Part shown: positions 2,946 through 37,860 of the stretch, piece after piece | Numbering within the stretch: the stretch's first letter is position 1 | Layout of the letters: each line of letters opens with the position of its first letter | Assembly: GCA_020056635.1 (NCBI GenBank) | Contig: JAGVHI010000018.1 | Span: 1-60,821, forward strand | Direction of reading: 5' to 3' | Length of the DNA stretch: 60,821 nt | DNA from: an archaeon | Lineage (GTDB): Archaea > Micrarchaeota > Micrarchaeia > Anstonellales > Anstonellaceae | Notes under the pieces: generated by a model | Seen by the model: the letters and a program-made list of their open reading frames with translations, nothing else | Databases searched by the model: none | Told to the model about the DNA's origin: nothing | Translations under genes and position numbers: made by a program

Positions 2946-5900
2946 TTATGTGGATGCGGGCGAATCGGGGCCCTGCTTTGGCATTTTCCGCTTCCCCTCC
3001 TGCTTATTTTTTCCTTTTCCAAACAGCAGCCATGCCCCAAGCATAACAAGCAGCAGCGTGGAAACCGCGAGCATTGCAATGGATAAAGATGAATCCTGGG
3101 AAGGGGGGAGCGAGGAGATTGAAGCGAGCGCTTTTCTTGAAAGCAAAATCGACTCCGCAAATTTTCCATCGTCAAGCTTGGATTTGGCCTCTGAAATGAC
3201 TGCTTTTATCTCGCGCAGCTGCGTGCCGTCCCGAAGTGAGGATTTGGAGAGCGCGGCATCCGCAAGCGAATACGAAGATTCGGCTGAATTCGAAAGCGAG
3301 GCAAGCGATGAGTTCAGCTGCAAAACAAGCGCGCGCGAGTTCTCAAGAAGGAGGAGCGAGTCAGTTTCAAGAGAGGAGGAAATGTTCTTTGCAAGCGATT
3401 TTTCAAGCGTGCCGCGCCTCTTTTCAAGCGCGGCGATATCGGATTTGACCTGTGATGGCGTCTTTGGCATGCTTGCTTTTGCAGACCTACCAAGCGCAGA
3501 GTATTCAGTTGAATAATGCGATTGCACAAGTGTTGCCCCTTCGAGGGAAAGCCTAGCCTGCAGAAGGGTTTCTGATATGTTTGAGCGCTTGGATTCAAGC
3601 ATTGAGGAATACGCCCGCTCAAGCTCTGCATCAGTGGCGCCAAGCGAAAGAAGCTTTTCAAGAGCAGGGTCAGAAAATCCGCTTGCAAGGTAAGCAAGCC
3701 TTATTTTTGAGGAATTGGTTTGGGGCGCAGGCCGCTTGGCTTGGAGTTGTGATGCCGCCTCTTGCTTTTTTTCCTCTTCTTGCAAGTGCCCAGATATTTC
3801 AGCGTCGAGAGCAAGGTACTGCGCATACGCCTCATCAAATTTGCCCTGCGAGTAGAGCGAATGCGCCTTGGAATAAAGCGAAAGGATTTGAGGCTTGAGG
3901 GTTTTTGCCGCCTCCGCCCCAAGAGTTTCGTCTAGGGGCCCAAGCGAGCCTATTTCGTAGGAGATTGCGAATTTTGTTCCGCTCCCAGGAGTTATCGGGC
4001 CTGTTTCAAGCGACACGAGCAAATCCTCGCCGTTTTCGGATTTTGAGAACACGCGTGCGGAGGAGCCGGAGAGGGGCGCAACCGCATAGTTCACTGCTTT
4101 TGCAGCGCCAGGCTCGCGAAGCGCAATTGACGCTTTTGGGATCATGATTTTTGCATTGGAGATTGATAGGATATAGGAGAGCCCCATATGCGATGCAGCC
4201 TGCTTAGTGGATGCGGATTCCCTTGCGATTGTGAATGGGAATGGGATGGAATATTTTACCCCGATGGAATGCTTCCCTTTGCTGATGCCGTGTAATGAAA
4301 TAGCAATGCCGCCTGCATTTGCAAAAGATGCGGCGCCAAGCCTGCCTGAGTCAATTGAAATTATTGACGAGCTGGACGGAGCGCCCAATTCGAGGATTGC
4401 ATTTTCAATTTCATTCTTCGCATCAAAAGAAACCGTTTTTTCAACCATGGCTATTTCAGAGTCCGCGTATTGCACTTCTGTGCTCTCTGATATTATTGGG
4501 AGCAGAGCAGTCTCCTTTTCGATTGAGAATGAGTACATGGAATTTGCGCCCGCCCCATGTGCGATGAAGGCTGTTTGCGCCCCGTTTGCCCTTGCGCCAG
4601 AAATCCAATCCCCATCAAGAATGTCAGAATCGGATGGCTGAAATGGCAGGGATGCGAGAAATTCAATTTCCCCGTCATATGCTATTGGCAGCGAGTTTGC
4701 AGTCGTTATGAGCAGCTTCCTTGGCTGGGACTTTCCCACGATCACCTGCTCATCTGACCGGTCTTCAACAATTGCGTTGCGGCTAAATTCCGCCCCAAGT
4801 ATTGCAGGCGCAAGCTCATTTGTTTTCTGCGAAAGCGCCAAAAGGTCTTTTCTTGCTGGCGCGAGCTTCCCAAGGGCGGCAGGCTGGGCTTGCCCGGAAA
4901 CAAAATAAGCCGAGTATGATTCGAGCTTCTGGCCAAGAGAGGGGAGGCGGGAGGCATAATATTTTGCAATCGATTCCAGCTCGGCAGTTTTCGCAGGAAT
5001 GTCCGAGTATTCAAGCGATGCGGCTGAAAGAAGAGATTCGATATTCGCTTGTGCGACCTGCGCCCCAAGTGATGGGTCTAAAGTGGCGTCTGACTGTAGC
5101 CGCTTGAGAAGGGAGAGGTCCTGCTCAGCGAAGAACGTGTCAAGCCCGTCCTGTTTTGCAAGCGAGATTGCGTGGGCAAGCGAATTTATAGAAGCTGAAG
5201 CTTCCAGTTCCTGTGACCTGGATGCTATTCCTTCAGATGATGCAAGCTCGGATGCTTTTCTTGCAAGGCGCGCGGCACCGGAGTAATGCACAAACCGCTC
5301 TCCAACAGAGGCTGCAATTTCTGCCTTCTCGAATTCCTCTTTTGCCTTTTTCAGCTCGGCACTTGCAGAAAGAAGCGCAGACGTTGCAGTTGATTGCAAT
5401 TTTTTCTGGAGCCCTATTTCCTCAGTTGCGTCCAAAATCCATTTTTCCGCGTCATGCAGTGCATTTTGTTCAGCATCCTCCGCCTCCTCAAGCGCAGCTT
5501 GCGCAAGCGAGGCTGATTGGCTTGCAATGTAAAAACAATCCGAGTATTTGTCAAGGGACACTGAGATGTAATGGAGTTTTTTTGATGTGAATGCCGATTG
5601 TGCCGCCGAACATTCCGCTTCCGCCCTCGAAAGAAGCTTTTGAGCGTACGAAAGTTTTGCAGATGGACCTAGAGGTTCAATCGACACCTCGATTCCCTCA
5701 TCTGAAAAAAAAGCAATTGCAGATGGGGTGACAAGCTCTGATCGTGCATCTTGCGCCTGCAAGAGCGCTTTTTTCGCAATGCCTATTTTGCCAGATGAGA
5801 TTAAAGATGCATTTTCAATTTCCGAATGTGCCAAAGCAATGAGAGCCCCGTATTGCGCGTGAAGCGTCGCTGCCCTTGGGATTGAGCCGTTTTTCCCTGC

Positions 5901-22670: not shown

Positions 22671-22902
22671 ACTGGGTCACCTTCATGGCGGAATAATATC
22701 CAACTACTTTTTACCACCATACTTATACATGATACTATTCATAAAGCTTTCGGTATCTTCGCCTATTGGCATCGGTAAATTGTCCCAGTATATTTAAAAA
22801 GATTGGTTCAAAGAGCTCAGATGGTATTTCATGTGAATGATAAACAGGTGGATGCGAAAAGTTTTCCGTCAACGCTTTTGCGAGCGAGCGCAGAGCGGGA
22901 GC

Positions 22903-22958
22903 GACCGGAAAACGCCGAAGCGTTTCACGGGCGTATTCCTGCGAAGCAGGAATCACGA
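22903..22958 (+). repeat. Family-1 hairpin element
   Basis: GACCGGAAAACGCCGAAGCGTTTCACGGGCGTATTCCTGCGAAGCAGGAATCACGA; related copies at 25235 and 33583. Confidence 0.75.
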
Positions 22959-22967
22959 GCAAAAGGG

Positions 22968-23747
22968 TTGCGTGTGGAGGTTGAATTGGATGTGCGCAGG
23001 AGCGCCATGGAAAACGCTTCCGCCTGCTTTGAGCTTGCAAAAAAAGCCGCCGCGAAGAGAAACGGGGCAAGAGAGGCCATTGAAAAAACGCAAAAGGAGA
23101 TTGCGCAGGCAAAAGAAGGGGCGCTAGTAGAGGGAGCGAAGGCAAAGGGCATCAAAATGAAGCGCAAGCGCGAGTGGTTTGAGGCTTTCCGGTGGTTCTA
23201 TACCTCGGGCGGCAGGCTGGTTCTTGCAGGAAGGGATGCAAAGCAGAACGATTTGCTTTATGCAAGGCACCTTGAGGATGGCGATTTGTTCTTCCATGCG
23301 GACATACAGGGCGCGCCTGCGGTTGTGCTCAAAGACGGCGCAAAGGCGGGCGATGGGGAGAAGCTGCAGGCGGCAAAATTCGCAGCCTCGTTTTCCTCTG
23401 CCTGGAAAATTGGCGCAGCAGAAGTTGATTCGTATTGTGTGAAAAAATCGCAGCTTGGCAAGCATGCGCAAGGGGGCTTTGTAGGCAAGGGGGGGTTTGC
23501 GATAGAGGGCGCAAGGGAATGGTTCAGGAAAATGAAAATTGAAACATATATTGGATTGCAAAGGGGGCTTGTGGCTTGCGCGCCAGAGCAAGGGCTGCTG
23601 GAAAAGGCGATAAGGGTATTGCCAGGCGGGGACGAGAAGGGCAGGGCGGCAAAATTCCTCGCAAAGAAGCTCTCGTGTGATGAGAGCGATGTCCTGTCAG
23701 CCCTTCCGAGCGGGAAAATAAAGATAATGCTTCTTGGGGAAAAATGA
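22968..23747 (+). CDS. NFACT-R (DUF814) RNA-binding protein, Rqc2/NEMF C-terminal-like
   Basis: WFEAFRWF...LAGRDAKQND, FFHADIQGAP, S.AWK; start uncertain. Confidence 0.85.
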   Translation: MRVEVELDVRRSAMENASACFELAKKAAAKRNGAREAIEKTQKEIAQAKEGALVEGAKAKGIKMKRKREWFEAFRWFYTSGGRLVLAGRDAKQNDLLYARHLEDGDLFFHADIQGAPAVVLKDGAKAGDGEKLQAAKFAASFSSAWKIGAAEVDSYCVKKSQLGKHAQGGFVGKGGFAIEGAREWFRKMKIETYIGLQRGLVACAPEQGLLEKAIRVLPGGDEKGRAAKFLAKKLSCDESDVLSALPSGKIKIMLLGEK

Positions 23748-23762
23748 GCCTGGGCTGTTTTT

Positions 23763-24311
23763 ATGGAACCAATATTCCAGGGAATACTGCTATTGCGCGA
23801 CGGGCGCGACCTGTGCTCGAACGCCTATGTGGTGAGGGCGAGGGACGGGAGCGAGAAAATATTGCTCGTTGATTCGGGGGATGGGAAATTGGAGGGCGTT
23901 GCAGGGCTGGAGCCTGAGCTCGTGCTCCTCACGCACGGGCATTTCGACCATACAGGTGGCGTAAAAAAAAGGTGGAGGGCGCTCCTGCACGAGGGGGATT
24001 TTTTAGGGGACAGGTTCATACGCGCGCCTGCTCATGCGGAAAAATACCCCCTTGAGATGCGGGTGAGGTGGAGGGATTGGAATTTTGAAATAATCCACAC
24101 GCCCGGGCACACCCCAGGGAGCGTTAGCATATTTGAGAGGAAGAGCGGCGTGCTGTTCTCCGGTGACACGCTCTTCTCAGAAGGGATTTTGGGCAGGACG
24201 GACCTTGGGTTCGGGTCGCAGGAGCAGATTGAGCAAAGCAGGGATGATTTGCTGGCGCTTGACTATTCCGTGCTCTGCCCTGGGCACGATGGGATAGAGA
24301 GGAGGAGATAG
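23763..24311 (+). CDS. MBL-fold metallo-hydrolase (glyoxalase II-like)
   Basis: THGHFDH, HTPGHT, SGDTLF, PGH. Confidence 0.9.
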   Translation: MEPIFQGILLLRDGRDLCSNAYVVRARDGSEKILLVDSGDGKLEGVAGLEPELVLLTHGHFDHTGGVKKRWRALLHEGDFLGDRFIRAPAHAEKYPLEMRVRWRDWNFEIIHTPGHTPGSVSIFERKSGVLFSGDTLFSEGILGRTDLGFGSQEQIEQSRDDLLALDYSVLCPGHDGIERRR

Positions 24312-24342
24312 GAAAACAGGCTTTGGAAGAGGGGGATAAAAA

Positions 24343-24987
24343 ATGAAAATACCAAGAGAGTCACATGAGAAATTGCAAAGCTCGTACAAGGAGCAAAAGC
24401 AAAAAATAATTGAGAGGCTTGCCCATTTCGAATCAGTCGGGAAGCTGCCCCGCGAAAAACTCTTTGAGGAGTTTACTTTCTGCATCTTCACCCCGCAGTC
24501 GAAAGCGCTTGCATGCGATGCGGCTGTGAAAAGGCTGTGCGAAAAGGAGCTCCTCAATTCCGGGAAAGAAGAGGAGATTGCCCCGCATCTTTGCGAGCTT
24601 GGGGTGCGGTTCCATAGGAACAAGGCACGGTACCTTGTGAAGGCGCGATTGGAGTTCGACGAGCACATGCAGGCTGTTGAGGGCGCGGAGGACGATTTCG
24701 TGGCGCGCAACTACCTTGCGGACAACGTGCTTGGGTTCGGGCACAAGGAAGCCGGGCATTTTTTGAGGAACATAGGGCGCGCAAGAAGGATTGCGATACT
24801 GGACAGGCACATACTGAAAAACCTGAAATTACACGGGGCGATAAGGGAGATCCCAAAAAGCCTGAGCAGGAAAAAATATTTCGAGATTGAGAGGAAGATG
24901 CAGGAGTTTTCCCAGGCGCTAGGGATTGACATGCAGCATGTGGACTTGCTTTTCTGGTCCGCGGAAACCGGCGGGATTTTCAAGTAG
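24343..24987 (+). CDS. ogg: 8-oxoguanine N-glycosylase/DNA lyase (OGG2 type)
   Basis: FCIFTPQS, RFHRNKA, GFGHKEAGHFLRNIG, ILDRHIL, DLLFW..ETG.IFK. Confidence 0.9.
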   Translation: MKIPRESHEKLQSSYKEQKQKIIERLAHFESVGKLPREKLFEEFTFCIFTPQSKALACDAAVKRLCEKELLNSGKEEEIAPHLCELGVRFHRNKARYLVKARLEFDEHMQAVEGAEDDFVARNYLADNVLGFGHKEAGHFLRNIGRARRIAILDRHILKNLKLHGAIREIPKSLSRKKYFEIERKMQEFSQALGIDMQHVDLLFWSAETGGIFK

Positions 24988-25033
24988 GCGATTCTTTTTA
25001 TACCCGCGATTGCCAATTGGCGTGAGTTGAAAA

Positions 25034-25378
25034 ATGGCAGAGGAAGAGAAAAAATCCGCGTGGGTGGACAAGGGCATATGCATCGGCTGCTGCCTGTGCG
25101 CCAGCCTTGCCCCAGGAGTCTACCGCATGAGGCAGGCGGACGGAAAAAGCGAGGTATACAACCCAGACGGGGCGTCCGTTGCCGAGGTGCAGAACACAAT
25201 TAGTTCCTGCCCTGTGGCCGCGATATCGTGGCAGGACCGGAAAACCGACGGCAGCTTTGCTGCCGGACGTATTTCGCGAAGCGAAATCACGGAAGGCTTT
25301 ACAGGCGTATCACGAAGCGATCACGAGAGGAAAAAGGTTGAAGAAGACATAGCGCAGCAGAAGGAGGAGGGCAGATGA
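25034..25378 (+). CDS. Single-cluster ferredoxin with an element-derived C-terminal insert
   Basis: CIGCCLC...CPVAAI. Confidence 0.85.
   Translation: MAEEEKKSAWVDKGICIGCCLCASLAPGVYRMRQADGKSEVYNPDGASVAEVQNTISSCPVAAISWQDRKTDGSFAAGRISRSEITEGFTGVSRSDHERKKVEEDIAQQKEEGR
25235..25326 (+). repeat. Family-1 hairpin element containing a nested second copy, in-frame in ferredoxin
   Basis: GACCGGAAAACCGA[CGGCAGCTTTGCTGCCGGACGTATTTCGCGAAGCGAAATCACGGA]AGGCTTTACAGGCGTATCACGAAGCGATCACGA. Confidence 0.75.
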
Positions 25379-26076
25379 GCGTGCGGGCTAAGGCAGCGTT
25401 TGCAGCAGTGCTGGTTGTTCTCCTTTTGGGATGCGTCATCCTGCCCCCTCCTAAGCCCGAGGTCAAGCAGAATGGTGGGGTGCAGGGCAATGTTTCCGTA
25501 GAGGAGATCGCAGCCCAGGAGCGTGCGCTTGCCGCGTTCAAGGAGGTTGCAGGAAAGAGGGCGCAACTTGCTTACAAGGCGGTATATTTTTCCAGCAGCG
25601 GCAACCAGAGTTCCGAGCAGACATGGTATGTGAAGCAGCCAACGCAGAAGGTGGAGGACAGGCTAAGCCCGAACAGCAGGATTATGGTCCTTGAGGATGG
25701 CGCAGCGTCGTATAGGTGCGATGCAGACGAGCTCGATGAGGTATGCTTCCGCATGCCAGCAGGCTCGATTGAGATGCTTCGGCCAGAAACCCTGCGCCAC
25801 GAGCTTGCTGCAGTGAGGTCGCCTGACCTTTTCAAGGTGCTTTTGGCTGGTTCCGCCCCAAGCTCTGTAGGAGAGCTGGCGGCGCAATGCTTCACTCTTA
25901 TTTCCACAGGCTCCAAGATGATTGCGTGCTACACAGCAGAAGGGGTCCCCTCGTACATAAAGCTCGAGGGCGCCGGGGCGGTGAGCGAAACGATGCTTCG
26001 CGCCACAAGCCCGGCAAGCGACTCGGACTTTGCGCCGCCTGCACAAATACAGCAGGAGCTGCCCGGTGCAGGATAG
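25375..26076 (+). CDS. Putative lipoprotein, paralogue of 58046 and 58923
   Basis: LLGC lipobox-like; CF...CYTAEGVPSYIK...DSDFAPPA. Confidence 0.75.
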   Translation: MSVRAKAAFAAVLVVLLLGCVILPPPKPEVKQNGGVQGNVSVEEIAAQERALAAFKEVAGKRAQLAYKAVYFSSSGNQSSEQTWYVKQPTQKVEDRLSPNSRIMVLEDGAASYRCDADELDEVCFRMPAGSIEMLRPETLRHELAAVRSPDLFKVLLAGSAPSSVGELAAQCFTLISTGSKMIACYTAEGVPSYIKLEGAGAVSETMLRATSPASDSDFAPPAQIQQELPGAG

Positions 26077-26091
26077 CTGCAAAATTAGGCT

Positions 26092-26853
26092 TCATTTTTT
26101 GCGTGCATTGTGCACAGCATCTGCAATCGCAGCCATGTTCGCCTTCTGCTCAAGCGCGGTGCCTATCTGGACAATGTCGCCCCCTGTTGCGATTATCGAT
26201 TTTGCCTGCTCTGGCGTCCGGATGCCGCCCGCGACTATGTAAGGGACATCAATTGCGGATGCAACTGCCTTGACCATCTCAAGGGGCACGTGCCCCTCTT
26301 TTGGGTTGCTGCCCGTGTCAGTGAGCACAAAGCGGTCTCCCGAGTACTGCGCGGCAAGCGCAAGCGCGGCTGCAATTTGCGGCTTTTCGCGCGGGACAAG
26401 ATTCACATCCCCGACCCAGCCGACCGTTCCACCGGGCGACACTACAATGTAGCCCACCGGGAGCGGCTCGACTTTCATCTGCGCCACAGTGCTTGCGGCA
26501 AGCATCTGCGCCTGCGAAATCCAATACGGGTTCCGCGAGTTTAGGAGAGTCATGAAATAGATCGCATCCGCATATTTTGTGACTGTTGATATGTTTCCCG
26601 GGAAAAGCACCACCGGGACGCTTGCATGGGACTTGATTTCCTTGGCAACGGTGTCGAGAAGCTCGCCCTGCACCCCCATGCTCCCGCCTATCAGAACTAC
26701 ATCCGCCCCGGCATCCGCGGAGTATTTGCCGGATTTTATCGCAAGCTCTGGGGACTTGTAATCCACCGGGTCGACTAGCGAGAAGAGAAGCCCGCTCTTC
26801 TTCTCCAGAGACTCAAGAATGTATTTTTCCGTCTTTCCGATTTGCATGTACAT
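26092..26853 (-). CDS. Geranylgeranylglyceryl phosphate synthase
   Basis: LVDP, IGGS, PVVLFPG, LLNSRNPYWI, YIVVSPG, IVAGGIR. Confidence 0.9.
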   Translation of the reverse strand: MYMQIGKTEKYILESLEKKSGLLFSLVDPVDYKSPELAIKSGKYSADAGADVVLIGGSMGVQGELLDTVAKEIKSHASVPVVLFPGNISTVTKYADAIYFMTLLNSRNPYWISQAQMLAASTVAQMKVEPLPVGYIVVSPGGTVGWVGDVNLVPREKPQIAAALALAAQYSGDRFVLTDTGSNPKEGHVPLEMVKAVASAIDVPYIVAGGIRTPEQAKSIIATGGDIVQIGTALEQKANMAAIADAVHNARKK

Positions 26854-26859
26854 CCCCCG

Positions 26860-27966
26860 CTATTTCACAATTCCCTCGCTTTTGAGGAACTCCCCTGCCA
26901 TTTGGTTTATCCCGTCACCCAATTTAACCCTTGCCGTCCAGCCCAATTTTTTTTGCGCACGGGCGGGCGAGATTCGCCTGTCGGAAGAGAGTATTTCCAC
27001 GTACTCGGGCTGCATTTTAGGCCGCTTGCCAAAAAGCCTAGCGCCATGCGCCATGGCGCTTGCGGCAACCCACGCAAGCCTTGCATCCGTATGCCTTGTG
27101 GGGGGGGCTGCGCCCACCGCTTCTGCCGCAAGCTTGAGGATTTGAGATTGCGATAGGGTTTCATTCTGCACAATATTGTAAATTTCCATCCCGGGCGTGC
27201 AGCTTTTCGCTCCAGCCGCAAGCATGATTGCATCCGCAACATCGTCCGCATGCACGAATGGGATTATGTTGCCGCCTGCGCCAAGTATGCGCATTTTGCC
27301 TTTTTTTAGCATCCGGAAAACCGCCATGTACCCGTCGTTGAACCCAGGGCCGTAGACCACTCCTATACGAAGCGCGGTTATGCGCATTCTGCTTGAGAAG
27401 TTGGATGCCGACTGCTCGGAAGCAAGCTTGCTTGCCCCGTAATCCGTGGTGGGAACGGTTGGGGAATTTTCGTCTATTTTCTCCCCTGCGATGTTCTTGC
27501 CATAAACAGAAATCGAGCTTGCGAGTATGAAGTGCTTCACTCCGGCATCTGAGGCTGCGTTTGCGATGTTTTCCGTCCCTGTGGAGTTTATTGCAAATAG
27601 TTTTTCCCGGCCGCCCATGAAATCAAGCGAGGCTGCAAGGTGAATTACTGTATCCACCCCCTTGCAAGCGCCAGAAAGCGATTTTGCATCAGTGACATCG
27701 CCAACGAACGGCTCAACGCCCTTTTGGAGCAGGTGCTCGTTTCCTTGGACGCGCCAACCACTTTCGCGAGCGGCTAAAAAACCATCTTGCACCTTCGGTG
27801 CAAGCTCGTAAAGCCGCTTCGCAGCTTTCCAACCGCTCACTCGACCCTGCGAAAAACCCGTCATCGCGCCCTTCCGCACTAGCGCCCTTGTTTTGAATCC
27901 CTTTTGCAGCAGCCTGCGGCAAACAGCCTGGCCTAGCCTGCCTGTTGCCCCGGTGACAAGGATCAT
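26860..27966 (-). CDS. NAD-dependent epimerase/dehydratase with a 41-aa element-derived insert
   Basis: ILVTGATGRLG, VIHLAA, SSISVYG, YGASK. Confidence 0.9.
   Translation of the reverse strand: MILVTGATGRLGQAVCRRLLQKGFKTRALVRKGAMTGFSQGRVSGWKAAKRLYELAPKVQDGFLAARESGWRVQGNEHLLQKGVEPFVGDVTDAKSLSGACKGVDTVIHLAASLDFMGGREKLFAINSTGTENIANAASDAGVKHFILASSISVYGKNIAGEKIDENSPTVPTTDYGASKLASEQSASNFSSRMRITALRIGVVYGPGFNDGYMAVFRMLKKGKMRILGAGGNIIPFVHADDVADAIMLAAGAKSCTPGMEIYNIVQNETLSQSQILKLAAEAVGAAPPTRHTDARLAWVAASAMAHGARLFGKRPKMQPEYVEILSSDRRISPARAQKKLGWTARVKLGDGINQMAGEFLKSEGIVK
27748..27870 (-). repeat. Family-2 39-nt hairpin element interrupted by an 84-nt branched hairpin
   Basis: GGCGCGATGACGGGTTTTTCGCAGGGT[84 nt]GGTTGGCGCGTC; related to 53380 and 60216. 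Confidence 0.75.
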
Positions 27967-28016
27967 GGATTGGTTTCTCGTTTGGTATTTAAATCCCAAG
28001 CGGGAAAGGTGCCAGT

Positions 28017-29606
28017 ATGGAATCCAAAATGGTTTTCGTTTGCGACACGTCGGTCATAGTGGATGGCAGGATACTTGACTTGGTGCGGGAAGGGAAAGTG
28101 TCTGGCAGGGTGGTGGTACCGCGCGCCTCTGTCGCGGAGCTTGAGCACCAGGCGAATTCGAAAAAGGAGACAGGGTTTGCGGGATTGGACGTGCTCCAGA
28201 AATTGCGCGAGCTGCAAAAGGATTTTGACATCGAGCTGTCGTTTGACGGGGAGAGGCCGACCGGGTTTGAGATTGGGCACGCGAAATCCGGGGAGATTGA
28301 TGCGAAAATCCGCAATCTTGCAGGCGAGATTGGGGCGACATTGGTCACAGGGGACAAGGTGCAGCACGAGGTTGCGCTTGTCGAGGGCATTTCGGTAATC
28401 TACTTGCGCTCGCACGAGGAAACCAAGGGGCTTTCATTTGAGCAGTATTTCGCGCCTGACACGATGTCGGTCCACATAAAAGAAGGCCAGCCGGTCGTTT
28501 CAAAGTCCGGAAAGCCCGGCTCGGTTGTGGTGAAGGAGGTTGGCGCTGCGCTCTCAACCAATGAGGTCCGGGACATTGCGAAAGAGATTGTTGAGGCTAC
28601 AGAGAGGAACAGGGACTACTATTTTGAAATCGAGCGGGAGGGCGCGACTGTGATACAGATGGGCAAATACAGGATTGTGATTACGAAACCGCCGTTCTCG
28701 GACGGGTTTGAAATCACGCTGGTCAGGCCGATTGCAAAATTCAAGTTGGCTGATTATGAAATGTCAGACAGGCTGCGCGGAAGGCTCACTGGAGCTGCCG
28801 AGGGGATAATAATCTGCGGCCCTCCGGGAAGCGGGAAAAGCACGTTTGCAGCAGCGCTTGCAAACCACTACTACTCACTTGGGAAAGTGGTGAAAACGAT
28901 GGAGAGCCCAAGGGACCTGCAGGTGGATGACGGGATTACACAGTACGGGCCGCTGGAGGGGAGCTTTGAGCTCACCAATGACATCATGCTGCTCGTGCGA
29001 CCGGATTACTCGGTCTATGATGAGATGAGGAAGACTGTTGATTTTGCGGTGTATGCGGACATGAGGATGGCAGGGATTGGATTGGTGGGAGTGCTGCATG
29101 CGAACAAGGCGATTGATGCGGTGCAGCGGTTCATCAATAGAGTTGAGCTCGGGATGATTCCGAATATAATTGATACCATTGTGCTCATCAAGGGGGGCCG
29201 GGTCGCAAAAGTGTATTCAATGGGATTGCTCGTGCGCGTTCCTACTGGCATGATTGAGGAGGATTTGGCAAGGCCGGTAATTGAGGTTCGGGATTTTGAC
29301 ACTGATAAGCTGGAATATGAGATTTACAAATTCGGAGAGGAGACTGTAGTGCTGCCCATTACGCAGGAGATGGTCGCAAAGCAGCAAAAGCTAAGCGAGC
29401 CGATTGATGAGGAGCGGGTAAGCGCTGCGCTTGAGAAGCTGCTTGCGAAAATTGTGCGCAGGGATTTCCAGATAGAGTTTGAGGGAAGAAAGGCGGTGCT
29501 TTTGCTTGATGAGAGGGACATGGCATCAGTGATTGGAAAGGGCGGGAAAAACATCTCGCAGCTTGAGAAGAAGGCCGGTGTGAAAATAGACGTGAGGCAG
29601 CTTTAG
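28017..29606 (+). CDS. PIN-domain ATPase with C-terminal KH domain (PINA family)
   Basis: [11 protein letters not shown]; GPPGSGKST; ESPRDL; DEMR; VIGKGGKNI. Confidence 0.92.
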
Positions 29607-29643
29607 CATTCTTTCTTAACTTCGCTTAGCCATAGAACAGCAG

Positions 29644-30000
29644 ATGCGCCAACTCCGCGTGAAATTGATGCGATGGGGCGAGGATCTAGGCAATGTGCCA
29701 ATTATTCTTGTGCGCGAGAGGCGCGCTGGAATGAGCCAAATGGGGCTCGCTTTTTTCCGCGCGTTTCGGGACTCTAAAGACCTGTGGAGCAGGGCATGCG
29801 TCTTCTGTGGGGCAATGGAGTTCGTGAGTGGGGGCGGCGCCAATGCATCAGACCAGAAAATGGTTGCAACCGAGGCTGCGCTGCTTGAGATACGCGTGAG
29901 GGCGGATGAGAAGATTCCTGTTGAGGAAAAGGCGCTTATTTTCAGGGAATCCGGACTTGCAAAGCTCAACCCGCGCCTGTCCAATGCAGTGCATTTGTAG
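29644..30000 (+). CDS. Hypothetical protein
   Basis: 118-aa ORF that fills the gap between co-oriented genes. Confidence 0.5.
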   Translation: MRQLRVKLMRWGEDLGNVPIILVRERRAGMSQMGLAFFRAFRDSKDLWSRACVFCGAMEFVSGGGANASDQKMVATEAALLEIRVRADEKIPVEEKALIFRESGLAKLNPRLSNAVHL

Positions 30001-30052
30001 CTTGCGCCCCTTCTGGCATTGATTTATAGCTTCTGTTTTCCAAATCGGAAGC

Positions 30053-31081
30053 ATGGTTTCCACATTCGAGGCTACCCCGAATATTGCGCTAATCAAGTAC
30101 TGGGGCAAGCGGGATTCGAAGCTCGTGCTGCCGCAGAACAGCAGCATATCCTTTACGCTTGGCAATTCGGTTAAGACAGTTACAAGCGTGCTTTTTTCGG
30201 ACAGGTTGAAAGAAGATGTTGCGTGGCTGAACCGGAAAAAAACATCTGGGGAGGAGCTTGCGAGGATGCTCCTGATAGCCGATTTGGTAAGGCAGAAGGC
30301 CAGCATTTCCTCCAAGGTTGCGATTGCGTCCGAAAACAATTTTCCGACTGCAGCAGGCATCGCATCCTCAGCTTCGGGCTTTGCAGCCCTTGCGTGCGCC
30401 GCATCCGACGCGGCAGGGCTGGGATTGAACCCAACCGAGCTGTCGATACTTGCAAGAATGGCATCTGGCTCTGCTTGCCGGAGCGTACTAGGGGGCTTTG
30501 TGGAGTGGAAGAAGGGCGAGGAGAAGGATGGGGGCGATTCGCATGCTGTGCAGATAGCGCCCGCATCCCACTGGCCTGAGCTGCATGATTTGATTGCGGT
30601 TGCTGAGAGCGGAAGAAAAAAAATCGGGTCGAGCGCCGGGATGGACCGGACCGTGAAAACAAGCGGCCTGTATGCAAAAAGGATTTTGGACCTGCCTTCC
30701 AGGATTGCAAAAATGCGGCAGGCGATAATGCTTCGGGATTCGCAAACCGTATTCGCGCTCTCCATGGAGGACTCGATGAACATGCATGCTACCATGCTTG
30801 ACACCAAGCCCCCAATACTATACTTGAATGAACGCTCGATGGGGATAATTGAAGCTATAGAGGAGCTTAATGCAAGCGAGGGGAAGCTTGTGTGCGGCTA
30901 CACGTTTGACGCAGGCCCGAACGCACACCTAATTTGCGAGGGGAAGGATGTTGCGAAGGTGAAGAAGAGCGTTGCCAAACTCCATGGGATTGAAAAGTTC
31001 TACGATTGCATCGTTGGGGCCGGGCCAATTAAGCTTGCTGCAAAGGAGAGCCTGCTTTCTGAGGCTGGAAAGCCTGTATGA
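30053..31081 (+). CDS. mvaD: Diphosphomevalonate decarboxylase
   Basis: NIALIKYWGK, PTAAGIASSASG, SGSACRS, YTFDAGPN. Confidence 0.92.
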   Translation: MVSTFEATPNIALIKYWGKRDSKLVLPQNSSISFTLGNSVKTVTSVLFSDRLKEDVAWLNRKKTSGEELARMLLIADLVRQKASISSKVAIASENNFPTAAGIASSASGFAALACAASDAAGLGLNPTELSILARMASGSACRSVLGGFVEWKKGEEKDGGDSHAVQIAPASHWPELHDLIAVAESGRKKIGSSAGMDRTVKTSGLYAKRILDLPSRIAKMRQAIMLRDSQTVFALSMEDSMNMHATMLDTKPPILYLNERSMGIIEAIEELNASEGKLVCGYTFDAGPNAHLICEGKDVAKVKKSVAKLHGIEKFYDCIVGAGPIKLAAKESLLSEAGKPV

Positions 31082-31091
31082 GGTGCGCGAT

Positions 31092-32084
31092 ATGAGGGGG
31101 ATAGCAGCTATAGTTGCAATCGCAGTTATTGCATCCGCATTCTTGGCAGGATGCGCTGGAAATGGGGAAGGCGCAATTCAGGTTGGAGATAACCGAACTA
31201 TTGCTGCGAATGGAACTGAAAAAAGCATCTCATTGTACCAGGCGATCGCAGAGGTCCGTGGCAACAGGAGTTATGAAGCATGCGGGAGCGTGCCAAGGGA
31301 GGATGCAGGGGTTTGCTACACTTACGCAGCACTTACGATAGACGGGGCGCTCTGCGACCAGGCAAGGGATCAGGACGCACAGACTTACTGCAAAAAGGCG
31401 ATTTCGATTTTCGGGGGGAAGCTGGATTTGTGCAGCAGGCTATCTGAGCTTGGCCCAAGGAACGGCTGCAATTCAAAGGTGATACTTTCCACGAATGCAT
31501 TTGGCAGGTCTGCGGACCATGCGCTTGCGGCAGGCAGGGTGCAGGGCGCGTTTGAAGCAGCATACTCAGACCTTGATTACAAGAGCATGAAATCATCGGT
31601 TTTTGAATGGGGCGATTCGTGCGTTGCGCAGACGATTGGGACTGGAGTGCTGCTTGGGTGCGACGGGGAAAAATGCGACAGGAACGCAATCACATATGCA
31701 TTGGTGGCATGCGGAGAAAATATGAGCGTGCGGGATGTTGCGCAAAGCGGGCGCGGCTCTGTATTCGAAAGGATGGAATTTGCAAACCTGGTTTCCCAGC
31801 CAAAGCGGGCAGAAAAGGGGTTTCCGTTGAAACTGAAAAATGAAACTTGGTATAGTGATGGGAATGCGACTGTCGCATATTATTCAGTTAGGTCATCGGA
31901 TGATTTGGCGTATTCATACTGGGAATTCCTGGTGCCATCAGGGCAGTATTACGCTTATGGGAGCATGCTGCACGAGCAAGTCACCTTGAACGGGCCTGCC
32001 CCGTCGGACAAGTTCATGGCCGGCTTCGAATCGCTTTACGGAAACATGACAGGGGGGGCGCTCTCAAATGCAACTGAAGAGTAA
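31092..32084 (+). CDS. Putative lipoprotein with Cys-paired repeats
   Basis: FLAGC lipobox-like after GAGGTG SD. Confidence 0.72.
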   Translation: MRGIAAIVAIAVIASAFLAGCAGNGEGAIQVGDNRTIAANGTEKSISLYQAIAEVRGNRSYEACGSVPREDAGVCYTYAALTIDGALCDQARDQDAQTYCKKAISIFGGKLDLCSRLSELGPRNGCNSKVILSTNAFGRSADHALAAGRVQGAFEAAYSDLDYKSMKSSVFEWGDSCVAQTIGTGVLLGCDGEKCDRNAITYALVACGENMSVRDVAQSGRGSVFERMEFANLVSQPKRAEKGFPLKLKNETWYSDGNATVAYYSVRSSDDLAYSYWEFLVPSGQYYAYGSMLHEQVTLNGPAPSDKFMAGFESLYGNMTGGALSNATEE

Positions 32085-32688
32085 AGGGAAGACCATTCCG
32101 GTTTCCAAGTTCGATGCCGCCCTGCAGAAGGCAAAGGAGGCGATTGCAAAGGGCCGGGCAGTAATCTACCCGACAGATACGCTCTACGGAATCGGCTGCG
32201 ACGCAACAAGCAAGAAGGCCGTTGGGGGGATTTATCGCATAAAATCCCGCGAGCCAAAAAAGCCCCTCTCCATTCTTGTTTCTGACTTGCCGATGGCGAA
32301 AAAATATTGTGAAATATCGCCAAGGCAGGAACAGGTTCTCACGGCTCTCCTGCCAGGCCCGTATACCTTCCTGCTCAAGCTGAAAATCCCCCTGCCAGTA
32401 ACCGACAGCAAACTTGTGGGGGTGCGGGTGCCGGAACACATGTTCATGCGCACTGTTTCCAGGCAGCTGGGAATCCCGATTGTGACAACAAGCGCGAATA
32501 GGAGCGGGGGGAAGGACGCTGCTGAGATTGGCGAGATTGAGGAGGGGATTTTGAATTCAAAAGAAGTTTCCTTGATTGTTGATGGCGGAAGGTGCAAGTA
32601 CGCGCAGGGCTCAACTGTAATTGACCTTGTGGACATGAGGGTTGCGCGCAAAGGGGCAGTGAGAGAAGGCGATAAGATTGAATTCTGA
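32068..32688 (+). CDS. Threonylcarbamoyl-AMP synthase (TsaC/YrdC-type, no SUA5 domain)
   Basis: YPTDTLYG, IK.R...KPL, PGPYT, TSAN.SG, STVID. Confidence 0.92.
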   Translation: MQLKSKGKTIPVSKFDAALQKAKEAIAKGRAVIYPTDTLYGIGCDATSKKAVGGIYRIKSREPKKPLSILVSDLPMAKKYCEISPRQEQVLTALLPGPYTFLLKLKIPLPVTDSKLVGVRVPEHMFMRTVSRQLGIPIVTTSANRSGGKDAAEIGEIEEGILNSKEVSLIVDGGRCKYAQGSTVIDLVDMRVARKGAVREGDKIEF

Positions 32689-32701
32689 TGCGGTGCTTTG
32701 A

Positions 32702-34687
32702 GTGGATTTGAATTTGATTGAGTATGATAGGTTGAAACTCTCCATTTTGCCTACTGTTTATCCTCCAGCGGAGGACTCGTTTTTGCTTGCAAAGTGGGCT
32801 GCAAGGCTTGTGCGCGGAGCGGTGCTTGAGGTCGGGTGCGGATGCGCTCTTGCATCGCTTGCGTGCGCACGGGAAAATGAAGCTGGGAAAGTGCTCGGGG
32901 TTGATGTCAATCCCTATGCAGTCAAATGCTCAAGGGAGAATGCCATTGCAAACAAAATCAAGAATGCGAAATTTCTCGAATCTGATTTGTTTTCTGCGGT
33001 GAATGGGAAAAAATTCGACTGGCTGCTTTTCAACCCGCCGTATCTTCCTACTGGAAAAAAAGAGAGGATGGCAGATGAAAACGAGAATGCAGCATACGAT
33101 GGAAGGAAGTCTGGCAGAAAAATAGTTGATGCGTTCCTTTCCCAATTTGAAAAATACCTTGCAAAAAATGGCTCGCTATTGCTCGTCTCAAGCTCGATTT
33201 CGGGCACAGAGAAAACAGTTGAGGGATTGGAACGGAAAGGATTCCGAACAAGAGTGCTTGAAACAGCCCCATTTTTCTTCGAGAAGCTTTCGCTGATTTG
33301 CGCAACAAAAAGAAAGCTTGATTATTCCGCTGCGCTCTGGGAAATAAGGTCGCTGGAATTGTTTGGGATGAAGCTTGGGCTATCGCGCATGCAGAAAATC
33401 CTTTCCGCGCTCGGGGAGCCGCAGAAACAGTTCCGCGTGATTGCAGTTGCAGGAACGAATGGGAAGGGCTCGGTTGCCACGATGGTTGCAAGCGTTTTGC
33501 AGGAAGCTGGATTTTGCGTTGGGCTCTACACTTCGCCGCACGTTGATGATTTTAGGGAAAGGTTCTTGGTGCAGGGAAAGATGACCGGAAAGCGGAGCTT
33601 TTCGGGCTCCTGCAGCTCGGCTGCAGGGCATATTCCGCGAAGCGGAATCATGATGCAACGAAGTTGCATGATTTCGGAGGATGAGTTTGTGCGTGAGTAT
33701 GCAAAAGTGGATGTGATTGCGCAAAAAATGGCCGACAGACCGACCTTTTTTGAGGTTACCACAGCGCTTGCACTCAATTGGTTTGCAAGCAAGAATGTTG
33801 AGTTTGCAGTGCTTGAAGTCGGTTTGGGCGGCAGGCTTGATGCGACCAATGCAGCGGATGCGGAAGTGGTTGTGGTCACTGGCATAGGCATTGAGCACGC
33901 AAAGGAGCTTGGTGGCACGCTTGAGAAAATTGCCAATGAAAAAGCCGGGATAATAAAACAGGGGAGCTCGGTCGTGGTTGGGAAGATGGAGAAGGAGGCG
34001 CTGGATGCGATAGTTGCAGCTGCAAAGGAGAAGAATGCAAAAAAAATTCTTATTTATGGGGAGGATTTCGATGCAGCCGAAATTGCATGCAGGAGCAATT
34101 ACTCGGAATTCGATTATAGGATTGGGAATGTGAAGTTCCCTTTTGAACTGTCGCTTTTCGGGAGATTCCAGGGGCAGAATGCCGCGTGCGCCATTGCCGC
34201 AGTGTCGCTTTTGCCTGAGAAAGATAAGATTGGAATTGGGAAGCTACTTTCCGGGCTGAAAAAAGCGCGCATTGGCGCCAGGCTTGAAACTGTATCCCTC
34301 AGCCCCTTGGTTGTGATGGATGCTGCCCACAACCCCCAGGCAATGGAGAAGCTTGCGCAATCGCTTCCATTGTTCAAGTACAAGCGGCTGGTTTTGGTGT
34401 TCGGCGCCATGGCTGATAAGGACATTGAGGGGGTGCTGAGTGCGATAGGCCCAAAGGCAGGCGAAATAATTGTGAACCAGCCGAAAGTGGCGCGCGCTGC
34501 AAACGCCGAGTGGGTTGCAAAAATTGCGGGCAAGTATTGCAAAAAAGTCTACGTAATTCCTGATGTGAAAAAATCAGTTGCGCATGCAAAAAAAATGGCG
34601 CGCAAAGGGGATATGGTTCTTATAGCAGGCTCCATATACATGATAGCTGAGGCAAGGGGCAAGGACAGGCTCGGAATATCGATGTGA
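32702..34687 (+). CDS. folC: Fusion of HemK2/PrmC-like SAM methyltransferase and folylpolyglutamate synthase FolC
   Basis: N-terminal VYPPAEDSFLL, LEVGCG, FNPPY; C-terminal AGTNGKGS, YTSPH, EVGLGGRLDATN, DAAHNP, AGSIY. Confidence 0.9.
   Translation: MDLNLIEYDRLKLSILPTVYPPAEDSFLLAKWAARLVRGAVLEVGCGCALASLACARENEAGKVLGVDVNPYAVKCSRENAIANKIKNAKFLESDLFSAVNGKKFDWLLFNPPYLPTGKKERMADENENAAYDGRKSGRKIVDAFLSQFEKYLAKNGSLLLVSSSISGTEKTVEGLERKGFRTRVLETAPFFFEKLSLICATKRKLDYSAALWEIRSLELFGMKLGLSRMQKILSALGEPQKQFRVIAVAGTNGKGSVATMVASVLQEAGFCVGLYTSPHVDDFRERFLVQGKMTGKRSFSGSCSSAAGHIPRSGIMMQRSCMISEDEFVREYAKVDVIAQKMADRPTFFEVTTALALNWFASKNVEFAVLEVGLGGRLDATNAADAEVVVVTGIGIEHAKELGGTLEKIANEKAGIIKQGSSVVVGKMEKEALDAIVAAAKEKNAKKILIYGEDFDAAEIACRSNYSEFDYRIGNVKFPFELSLFGRFQGQNAACAIAAVSLLPEKDKIGIGKLLSGLKKARIGARLETVSLSPLVVMDAAHNPQAMEKLAQSLPLFKYKRLVLVFGAMADKDIEGVLSAIGPKAGEIIVNQPKVARAANAEWVAKIAGKYCKKVYVIPDVKKSVAHAKKMARKGDMVLIAGSIYMIAEARGKDRLGISM
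33583..33671 (+). repeat. Family-1 hairpin element plus an extra hairpin, 87 nt in-frame in FolC
   Basis: GACCGGAAAGCGGAGCTTTTCGG...GGGCATATTCCGCGAAGCGGAATCATGA followed by TGCAACGAAGTTGCA; ATGA at both ends. Confidence 0.78.
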
Positions 34688-37425: not shown

Positions 37426-37860
37426 ATGGCGAACATGCCAAACTTTGAGAAGAAGCTCGTTGCAGTAGTGAACGGCTCGCTTGATACCGGAAAGGCCATG
37501 AACGCGCTTTCGCACGCGATGCTTGGGTTCGGAAAAGGTGTGATTTCGGATGAGGATGCACATTTGAACCGCTACGATGATGTGGATAATGGTGCGCACC
37601 CAAACATTTCCGAGATGGCGATTGTGGTGCTGCAAGCGAACAGTGATGAGATACGTGGGCTTCGAAAATTTGCAATTGAGAACAACTTGCAGTTCGTCGA
37701 TTTCGTAGACACAATGAGCGCTGGCGAGTACGAATATGAGTACCGGCTCACGAAAGGAAAGAAGGATTCCGAGCTTGAATATTGGTGCATTGTGCTGTTT
37801 GGGAAGAAGGAGATTGTGAGCAAGGGGACCGGAAAGCTGAAATTGTATAGGGGAAAATGA
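37426..37860 (+). CDS. DUF2000 family protein (PTH2-like fold)
   Basis: G.AMNALSH...G, Y.D.D.G.HPNIS....VVL, DF..TM, LFG. Confidence 0.7.
   Translation: MANMPNFEKKLVAVVNGSLDTGKAMNALSHAMLGFGKGVISDEDAHLNRYDDVDNGAHPNISEMAIVVLQANSDEIRGLRKFAIENNLQFVDFVDTMSAGEYEYEYRLTKGKKDSELEYWCIVLFGKKEIVSKGTGKLKLYRGK

Follow-up and report, generated by a model that had tools for sequence, protein, structure and literature searches.

A probable non-autonomous double-hairpin repeat family in a small archaeal genome, with in-frame copies in conserved enzymes

The 60,821-nt contig JAGVHI010000018.1 (GCA_020056635.1), referred to here as the window, belongs to a member of the Micrarchaeota whose genome (G000, of which the window is contig C1) comprises 1.10 Mb in 27 contigs and is 78.8% complete. 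Within 10.7 kb of the window lie four copies of a short DNA repeat made of two adjoining hairpins, which we name H. Three of these (copies 1-3) were noticed in a first-pass annotation of the sequence and the other (copy 4) is added here. For comparison we used 41 other genomes of the same archaeal family, labelled G0xx, with individual loci labelled L0xx. We consider it likely that H is a lineage-restricted, non-autonomous family of DNA repeats, apparently undescribed, and that those copies which have survived in frame within genes are translated.

The locus and its four copies

The copies lie in open reading frames (ORFs) for an NFACT-R protein, a ferredoxin, a methyltransferase-FolC protein and an epimerase (Table 1). 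The first-pass annotation had placed three elements at 22903-22958, 25235-25326 and 33583-33653, and all three are indeed there with the motif that it described, namely GACCGGAAA, a variable hairpin, GGCRTAT, a hairpin topped by CGAAGC, and ATCAYGA, although the third extends to 33671. Of the net lengths assigned to them, 54 and 90 nt hold, whereas the third (69 nt) becomes 87 nt once the insert is delimited by alignment with orthologues, as this takes in a further hairpin of 18 nt at 33654-33671. For the sequence GACCGGAAA, 0.48 occurrences would be expected in the window and there are four, a number that none of 100 shuffles attains; the fourth occurrence, at 37827-37835, has no hairpins behind it and is not an H copy.

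Copy 1 is composed of CCGG, hairpin 1, ACGG, GCGTA, hairpin 2 and CACGA. Copy 2 combines a full unit that has an atypical first hairpin (approximately 25237-25292) with a second unit truncated at its 5' end (25293-25326), and a 39-nt stretch of it is 82% identical to copy 3. The last 18 nt of copy 3 (33654-33671) are a solo second hairpin of subtype A, one of two subtypes described below, and match C25:16557-16600 at 18 of 18 positions. When the copies were folded as single-stranded DNA, none of the 200 shuffles made of each copy folded as well as the copy itself. Scans of the window with Rfam and for tRNA gave no match. In what is probably the source DNA run, a contig spans the folC insert with 0 differences and no insert-free variant was seen, which makes an artefact of binning or assembly less likely, although this evidence is not independent. 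Among RNA runs, none containing the folC stretch was found.

Table 1. Copies of H in the window and the features that carry them (R1, covariance model of H; z, score of the single-stranded DNA fold against shuffles)
Feature	Position	Strand	Details
ORF P0001, NFACT-R protein	22803..23747	+	Pfam NFACT-R_1, residues 129-236
Palindrome U, host of copy 1	22862..22969	+	middle diverged
H copy 1, subtype B, 54 nt	22905..22958	+	R1 39.3 bits; z = -5.09
Ferredoxin ORF P0002, host of copy 2	25034..25378	+	Fer4_13, residues 11-66
H copy 2, 90 nt	25237..25326	+	below R1 detection; z = -3.25
Epimerase ORF	26863-27966	-	Pfam Epimerase
Epimerase extra segment, ~40 aa (copy 4 plus outer palindrome)	27724..27855 (bounds approximate)	-	segment fold
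H copy 4, subtype A, 48 nt	27785..27832	-	R1 50.9 bits; z = -4.94; absent from the first-pass annotation
Methyltransferase-FolC ORF P0003, host of copy 3	32702..34687	+	Pfam; insert is residues 295-323
H copy 3, 87 nt, four hairpins	33585..33671	+	R1 35.2 bits, outside training set; z = -5.95

Structure, ends and target sites of H

An alignment (A1) of 17 H copies was turned into a covariance model (R1), which finds 20 copies in G000, three of them outside the training set (the folC copy, C13:3653 and C8:52327). The model misses copy 2 at E <= 1 because of its atypical first hairpin, and the total of 21 copies used throughout is made up of the 20 found by R1 and copy 2, added by eye. The unit, 44-54 nt in length, starts 5' YCGG and ends CAYGA 3'. 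Its layout is (C/T)CGG, stem-loop 1 (typically AAAGCC-GAA-GGCTTT), (A/T)CG(G/A), a linker of 1-5 nt, stem-loop 2 and CA(C/T)GA, and the YCGG head, as CCGG or TCGG, is present in 20 of the 21 copies. Two subtypes can be told apart by the 3' end, which is GTTGCATGA in subtype A and GGAATCACGA in subtype B, the latter being the type seen in the first-pass annotation.

The helices of H are well maintained, with 94.5% of alignment cells paired as compared to 76.4% in shuffles (0 of 500 reach the observed value), and changes on both sides are seen in 10 of the 14 base pairs, while slid controls pair at 24-45%. The stems hold seven G-U and six A-C cells, and this near equality gives no sign of selection acting on one transcribed strand, as expected of a palindrome at the level of DNA. 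In the minimum-energy DNA folds of the 21 copies, 27 of the 46 loops have the form C[GNA]G or C[GNNA]G, with GAA the loop in 18. The GCGAAGC hairpin reported earlier therefore generalises as a rule for loops, but the heptamer itself is not enriched, as it occurs 19 times in the window against 20.5 expected and 68 of 100 shuffles reach 19. Mini-hairpin DNA of the form GCGNAGC or GCGNNAGC belongs, according to the available part of one source (PMC13037366), to an extraordinarily stable class, and d(GNA) loops are described in stable DNA mini-hairpins in the accessible text of another (PMC3201870).

The ends of the element are sharp. When copies are compared together with 80 nt of flank, similarity extends from YCGG, or from one base before it, to the terminal GA and no further. 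For example, copy 1 and C25:16494-16547 are identical at 53 of 55 positions, ending exactly at the element ends, and C23:6423 and C25:16557 at 44 of 46. The 5' end, YCGGAAAGCC, does not recur in inverted form at the 3' end, GTTGCATGA or GGAATCACGA, so that terminal inverted repeats are absent. Of the 21 copies, 15 have an A directly to their left (as GA in 8 and as CA in 6) and 14 a T directly to their right, with no fixed 4-5-mer on the left. The idea that the elements are bounded by GA on both sides thus applies on the left to those eight copies, copies 1-3 among them, while the GA on the right belongs to the element. Six junctions could be resolved and show 0, 1, 2, 3, 4 and 5 repeated bases, which, where present, correspond to the conserved end of the element itself (CGA, ATGA, CCGGA); a repeat of variable length that matches H's own end indicates that there is no target duplication of fixed length.

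The sequences on either side of H tend to pair with each other, with a median of -15.9 kcal/mol as compared to -11.3 kcal/mol at 3000 random sites (p = 0.001), and the value lies under the random 5th percentile of flank-pairing energy at 5 of 19 sites, which indicates that H is preferentially found where a larger palindrome has its tip. Copies are also clustered, with seven neighbouring pairs within 5 kb against 1.73 expected (P = 0.0008). Some of the larger structures recur. C5:57009-57053 and C23:6423-6467 share their flanks (TGCCTCAGA...CTCATCAC.AA to the left of H and TCAGAG to its right), as do C8:52327-52371 and the metagenome locus L068:832-861 (CGAGGGTTCGCGCA to the left and TTTTTTCGCGCGCTCCCGAG to the right), so that larger composite palindromes with H at the tip are themselves repeated or conserved.

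Copy 1 is hosted by a second repeat, a 52-nt palindrome that we name U (TTTTCCGTCAACGCTTTTGCGAGCGTGCCCA followed by TCTGGAGCGAGCAAAAGGGTT), with the left arm TTTTCCGTCAACGCTTTTGCGAGCG at 22862-22886 and the right arm GAGCAAAAGGGTT at 22957-22969. Empty U sites are found in G000 at C9:6139-6181 and C14:9618-9660, while in C5 and C25 U is filled at the identical point (GTGCCCA/TCTGG, the slash marking the insertion) by H copies of different subtypes. Further H units lie in U after CGA in C25 and, as copy 1, after GGAGCGA in the window, and all four units have the same orientation relative to U. Coordinates of U in G000 further include C8:~31720-31770, C5:1631-1726 and C25:16470-16625, and sites in relatives include L098-L103. 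The 43-nt core of U, allowing up to 3 mismatches, is present in 17 of the 42 family genomes, spread over three genera with 1-4 copies each. Its arms show compensatory changes, with tandem G-A pairs on one strand, and its conservation between genomes at 40-50% protein identity suggests that U may have a function.

U is also connected with tRNA introns. ARAGORN -i predicts 32 tRNA genes in G000, of which approximately 20 have introns, ten of these being 81-137 nt long, and several introns share a module, CTTTTCTTTC...GAAAGAAAAG, that forms a family distinct from both H and U. U lies inside predicted tRNA introns on C8 and C9 and in locus L102 of a relative. In L098 and L103 it adjoins, by eye, tRNA 5' halves directly after the anticodon loop, and elsewhere a protein gene begins shortly after it. 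Next to U, the C9 intron contains a hairpin, CGGAAAA...TTTTCCG (C9:6115-6176; L020:166-227), which R1 scores at 15.2 bits (E = 0.0045 over 9.4 kb), and this weak match could represent a possible distant link between hairpin 1 of H and intron modules.

It might be supposed that the inserts are themselves introns at the RNA level, cut out of mRNA or tRNA precursors by the Micrarchaeota epsilon-2 endonuclease and spreading like "jumping" tRNA introns. The richness of G000 in long tRNA introns, the position of U inside predicted introns and the H-like hairpin beside U on C9 would all agree with this, but several observations make it very unlikely. The bulge-helix-bulge (BHB) rule is that two 3-nt bulges surround a 4-bp helix, and we searched all registers within 8 nt of the junctions for a 4-bp central helix together with an outer helix. 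At native-protein registers 0 of 4 inserts pass this test, whereas 4 of 6 control tRNA introns of G000 do, and the 68 registers yield just one match, which is off-register. ARMAN-type endonucleases are described as cutting non-canonical motifs (PMC3239211, PMC12397907), and cleavage as broad as these papers indicate, in the parts available, would speak for the intron reading. However, H folds on itself end to end, which leaves nothing to pair with the exons, and the intragenic copies all keep the reading frame and contain no stop, neither of which would be needed if they were spliced out. Furthermore, comparison of R1 with the tRNA predictions places no H copy in any tRNA intron, and GNA triloops are a stability motif of DNA, not of RNA. 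A broader proposal would make H and U parts of one mobility system of ultra-small archaea that has no recognisable transposase. Intron-type modules and stable DNA mini-hairpins would then colonise tRNA introns, untranslated regions and ORFs, spreading through the tips of single-stranded DNA hairpins or as RNA cut and rejoined by the splicing endonuclease, and some intragenic copies would be removed or skipped during expression. This is speculative and, in our estimation, quite improbable.

Copies within and beside genes

Most H copies are intergenic or lie at gene ends, and in the 21 contexts we saw no gene that was split by an out-of-frame copy. Those within genes (folC, a pyrC-like gene, the epimerase and the ferredoxin) are in frame and contain no in-frame stop. 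The folC insert adds 87 nt, or 29 residues, between GKM and ISEDEF, as the first-pass annotation had proposed, and is missing from all five orthologues that could be aligned, a sixth locus having failed to align; across 40 relatives, matches to FolC are split at residues 294/325. The host, P0003, joins a HemK/MTS-type methyltransferase (residues 28-117) and FolC in a single ORF of 661 aa. In the relatives searched, each part matches a locus of its own. P0003 is either a fusion specific to the lineage or a pair of genes without an intervening stop.

The pyrC-like gene, on contig C20, encodes a dihydroorotase-like amidohydrolase and holds a 48-nt H copy, or 16 residues, antisense to the gene. 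None of the 24 orthologues that were aligned has this insert, five more loci having been left out beforehand because they were partial or outside the length limits. Similarly, the epimerase insert of ~40 aa is missing from 5 of 5 orthologues. In the ferredoxin, 90 nt are inserted in frame after the Fer4_13 domain, which ends at residue 66, giving ...AISWQD, 30 additional residues and then the tail ERKKVEEDIAQQKEEGR, which is preserved together with its stop codon, the latter overlapping the start codon of the next gene. Five genomes yielded one weak match to this ferredoxin, and with it no usable empty site for copy 2.

An AlphaFold model of the dihydroorotase-like protein, built with 25 sequences, has a predicted local distance difference test score (pLDDT) of 93.5 and a predicted template modelling score (pTM) of 0.93. 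Within the insert, pLDDT falls below 50 at residues 305-312, blocks of 10 residues average 55 and 60, and residues 303 to 322 have no secondary structure. The model fits a tolerated surface loop, which may be what the insert forms.

At the ends of genes, the folD ORF (C13) reads through one H copy and the nth ORF (C21) through two, the latter antisense. Copies 1-3 and their ORFs do all share the plus strand, as was originally noted, but the antisense copies in nth and the pyrC-like gene mean that sense orientation is not a property of the family. Other copies lie at the 5' ends of the NFACT-R gene (copy 1), purF, a ribonucleotide reductase gene and priL. The purF copy (C9:32489-32536, minus strand) follows the first ATG and precedes the catalytic Cys of CGIFG, and is either upstream of a TTG start or within a propeptide that would in any case be cleaved off. 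In P0001, copy 1 corresponds to residues 35-52. Its orthologues have open frames of 269-295 aa as compared to 314 aa here, and four of the five align only from query residue 54-60, while the alignment of the fifth begins at residue 31 and includes a stop. These late starts indicate that copy 1 is most likely upstream of the true start, which, to judge from the alignments, is probably located just after U, near 22968-22995. The earlier description of the elements as inserted in genes consequently stands for folC and ferredoxin, where they are in frame, but most likely not for copy 1, which is nested in U ahead of its gene.

The position of several copies immediately behind a stop codon or ahead of a gene, together with the run of T that follows approximately a quarter of all copies (C5:4666, C7:21884, C8:52327, C21:24342 and window 27785), might point to hairpins that serve the host, as terminators, stabilisers of mRNA ends or protein-binding sites, selected in the manner of domesticated REP sequences. 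The compensatory changes that maintain the stems would be consistent with this, but they are equally expected if the hairpins are needed for spreading. In addition, the family is missing from 39 of the 41 relatives, which have the same genes, some copies interrupt conserved enzymes, the orientation relative to the gene varies, and one of the T-run copies is inside an ORF. A host function as the reason for the existence of H therefore seems distinctly unlikely to us.

For the intragenic copies it is also conceivable that the ribosome skips the insert, a process known as programmed translational bypassing. Such bypassing takes place in T4 gene 60, and the "byp" elements of Magnusiomyces mitochondria reportedly act in this way. 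Two of the four inserts are flanked by matched codons in frame, ATG...ATG in folC and CGA...CGA in the ORF of copy 1, and the inserts are stable hairpins of 48-90 nt. According to a preprint, the bypass sequence of gene 60 is linked with a mobile element (10.1101/2022.08.31.505936). However, no stop follows the would-be take-off codon, and inserts which are in frame and open make bypassing unnecessary; moreover, matching codons are lacking at copy 2, and copy 1 probably does not code for protein. We thus regard bypassing as extremely improbable. Since the inserts are in frame and free of stops, and the BHB test was negative, translation is favoured over both splicing and bypassing, and is what we infer as the best explanation from the sequences.

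Distribution, mode of spread and comparison with known systems

Searching the 41 family genomes with R1 gave three copies of H in G004, which belongs to a different genus and is the closest to G000 by protein identity. Both subtypes are represented among them, and the sites are flanked by inverted repeats. A match in G044 (E = 4.8e-4, 66 nt) looks like ordinary coding sequence and was not counted. A scan of 185,579 species genomes for the exact pattern returned only the contig of G004, the same scan of metagenome contigs returned one match, in a relative that is ~81% identical, and that of viral contigs gave 0 matches. We found no prior report of such an element in Micrarchaeota in the literature, supplements being outside the coverage.

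We read the family as a mobile insertion because there are approximately 21 copies with sharp ends, empty sites and a narrow distribution. This is in keeping with the original suggestion of a non-autonomous mini-element, as further copies do exist and the inserted peptides are missing from orthologues rather than conserved there without the hairpins. According to this reading, copies of H would have been inserted at the level of DNA in unrelated places, without terminal inverted repeats or target duplication, usually between A and T and often at the tip of a pre-existing palindrome. Four would have entered the conserved palindrome U, which in relatives appears to be part of tRNA introns. What the insertion process recognises may be the hairpins as they form in single-stranded DNA, and H itself would be a selfish element. 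In coding sequence, the survivors would be those copies whose length is divisible by three and which bring no in-frame stop, and they would be translated as a disordered extra loop or tail, as in the case of Rickettsia palindromic elements.

A number of results weigh against this reading. Firstly, no mobilising enzyme was found. The first-pass annotation had linked the hairpins to HUH transposases of the RAYT/TnpA type, and this link, apart from the DNA-type loops, gained no support, as genome-wide searches for the Y1 HUH transposase (PF01797) gave 0 matches in G000 and G004, the two genomes that bear H, while control genomes did match. Searches of both genomes for OrfB_IS605 and for reverse transcriptase (RVT_1) were likewise negative, which agrees with the earlier remark that no mobiliser is visible, although both assemblies are incomplete, with ~21% of G000 and ~10% of G004 missing. 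Secondly, with ends set by motif, 19 of 21 H copies have a length that is a multiple of three, but the same applies to only two of the four whose ends are fixed independently by empty U sites, so that divisibility by three is not established as an intrinsic property of H. Thirdly, the copies are mutually related, and statistics on flanks, lengths and clustering therefore overstate their independence. Low pLDDT in the dihydroorotase-like insert would be expected anyway, the alignment being gapped there, and no presence/absence polymorphism of H was seen within a species. Finally, 3 of the 6 resolved junctions show microhomology of 3-5 nt, which is as compatible with template switching as with an enzyme.

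The junctions and the missing enzyme leave room for the same element spreading without any enzyme. A replication fork would stall at a palindrome and the nascent strand would switch template through microhomology, copy the unit and switch back, and gene conversion between palindromes would have the same effect. The absence of any transposase, reverse transcriptase or HUH protein from the matches in G000 and G004 would be explained, as would the microhomology (ATGA in folC, CCGGA in pyrC and CGA at copy 1), the mosaic copies (the truncated second unit in copy 2 and the solo second hairpin in copy 3), the local clustering of copies and the palindromic nature of the targets. On the other hand, near-identical copies on different contigs with exact, reproducible ends look like site-specific insertion, as does the presence of two subtypes at exactly the same point of U, and the other three resolved junctions have only 0-2 nt of microhomology. 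We hold enzyme-free spread to be fairly unlikely, and prefer insertion of a non-autonomous element.

Several candidates for a mobiliser or a parent were followed. IS200/IS605-type Y1 transposase genes are present in 12 of the 41 relatives, all of them without H, at up to three per genome (G045, G056, G013, G019 and others; loci L069-L072), but at four such loci nothing H-like was seen near the TnpA genes, where R1 reaches at most 8.6 bits. The Y2_Tnp profile (PF04986) gave no match, though the control genomes gave none either. A "TnpB-like" match on contig C10 proved to be the zinc ribbon of ribosomal protein L37ae, and the genes between paired H copies on C5 and C7, considered as composite transposons, are housekeeping genes. 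Neither the R1 search of G000 nor the pattern scans revealed a longer "parent" element with H ends.

The genomes of symbiotic archaea, at ~1 Mb, are usually thought to be streamlined, yet a repeat of ~45 nt that is probably selfish has come to lie in at least four conserved enzymes (FolC, the dihydroorotase-like amidohydrolase, the epimerase and the ferredoxin) as well as at several gene ends. This would make H a clean natural experiment on the origin of new protein loops and tails. As a compact test case, H may also be informative on template switching in archaea, or on mobility by way of hairpins in single-stranded DNA, because it combines a lack of inverted repeats, target duplication and visible enzyme with DNA-stable hairpin tops and a preference for palindrome tips. 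It would also account, in annotations of this lineage, for unusual insertions, N-terminal "extensions" and C-terminal tails. The palindrome U, present in three genera at the 5' edge of tRNA introns, may turn out to be more important than H.

Among known systems, H resembles the REP superfamilies (PMC3733652, in the part available), BIMEs and other IS200/IS605-derived repeats in having a hairpin with a conserved tetranucleotide head (YCGG in H), no terminal inverted repeats, no target duplication and, probably, recognition as single-stranded DNA. It differs in that its head is neither GTAG nor CGTC, that no Y1 HUH protein was found in the genomes that bear it, and that the transposase loci of relatives lack H-like ends. 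Insertion of IS200/IS605-derived elements takes place 3' of a fixed tetra- or pentanucleotide, and the left flanks of H mostly end in A, with no such fixed 4-5-mer seen. Miniature inverted-repeat transposable elements, as described in the accessible part of PMC10969869, are also small, multicopy and non-autonomous and sometimes form in-frame fusions within genes, but H is without their terminal inverted repeats, target-site duplication and parent insertion sequence. Like transposed BHB tRNA introns, H is a short structured unit found at new sites in a small archaeal genome, and the host palindrome of copy 1 is an intron module; unlike them, it has no BHB at its junctions and no copy in tRNA genes. 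From translational bypass elements it is set apart by the lack of any stop or frame break that would make bypassing necessary.

The nearest analogues in anatomy are the double-hairpin elements of mitochondria, including those of Allomyces (Paquin et al., 2000, via PMC2800124 and PMC4478555), the RHEs of sponges and the GC clusters of yeast. As far as the available portions of these sources describe them, they too consist of two-hairpin units that merge and shuffle, have no known mobiliser and are found in spacers, RNA genes and occasionally protein genes, and those of Allomyces share with H the absence of flank duplications, whereas the yeast GC42 cluster duplicates an AG target. They are organellar, while H is cellular and archaeal and nests in a palindrome of the tRNA-intron type, and there is no sequence relationship; the likeness is thus one of kind only. 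In function, the nearest analogue is the Rickettsia palindromic elements (Ogata et al., 2000, via PMC10969869), which are described there, in the part available, as repeats of ~150 bp that lie in frame in housekeeping genes and encode a peptide conserved within each family. Both are short, palindromic multicopy repeats, in the case of H probably selfish as well, without a gene of their own and in frame in unrelated housekeeping genes, and H would, like them, add a peptide compatible with the fold of the host protein. H is smaller (44-54 nt as compared to about 100-150 bp), has no conserved peptide or fixed frame, occurs in both orientations and mostly outside genes, and has an archaeal host. 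What is new here is a small palindromic repeat in an archaeon, and the kind to which it belongs, that of selfish palindromes with in-frame survivors, is already known.

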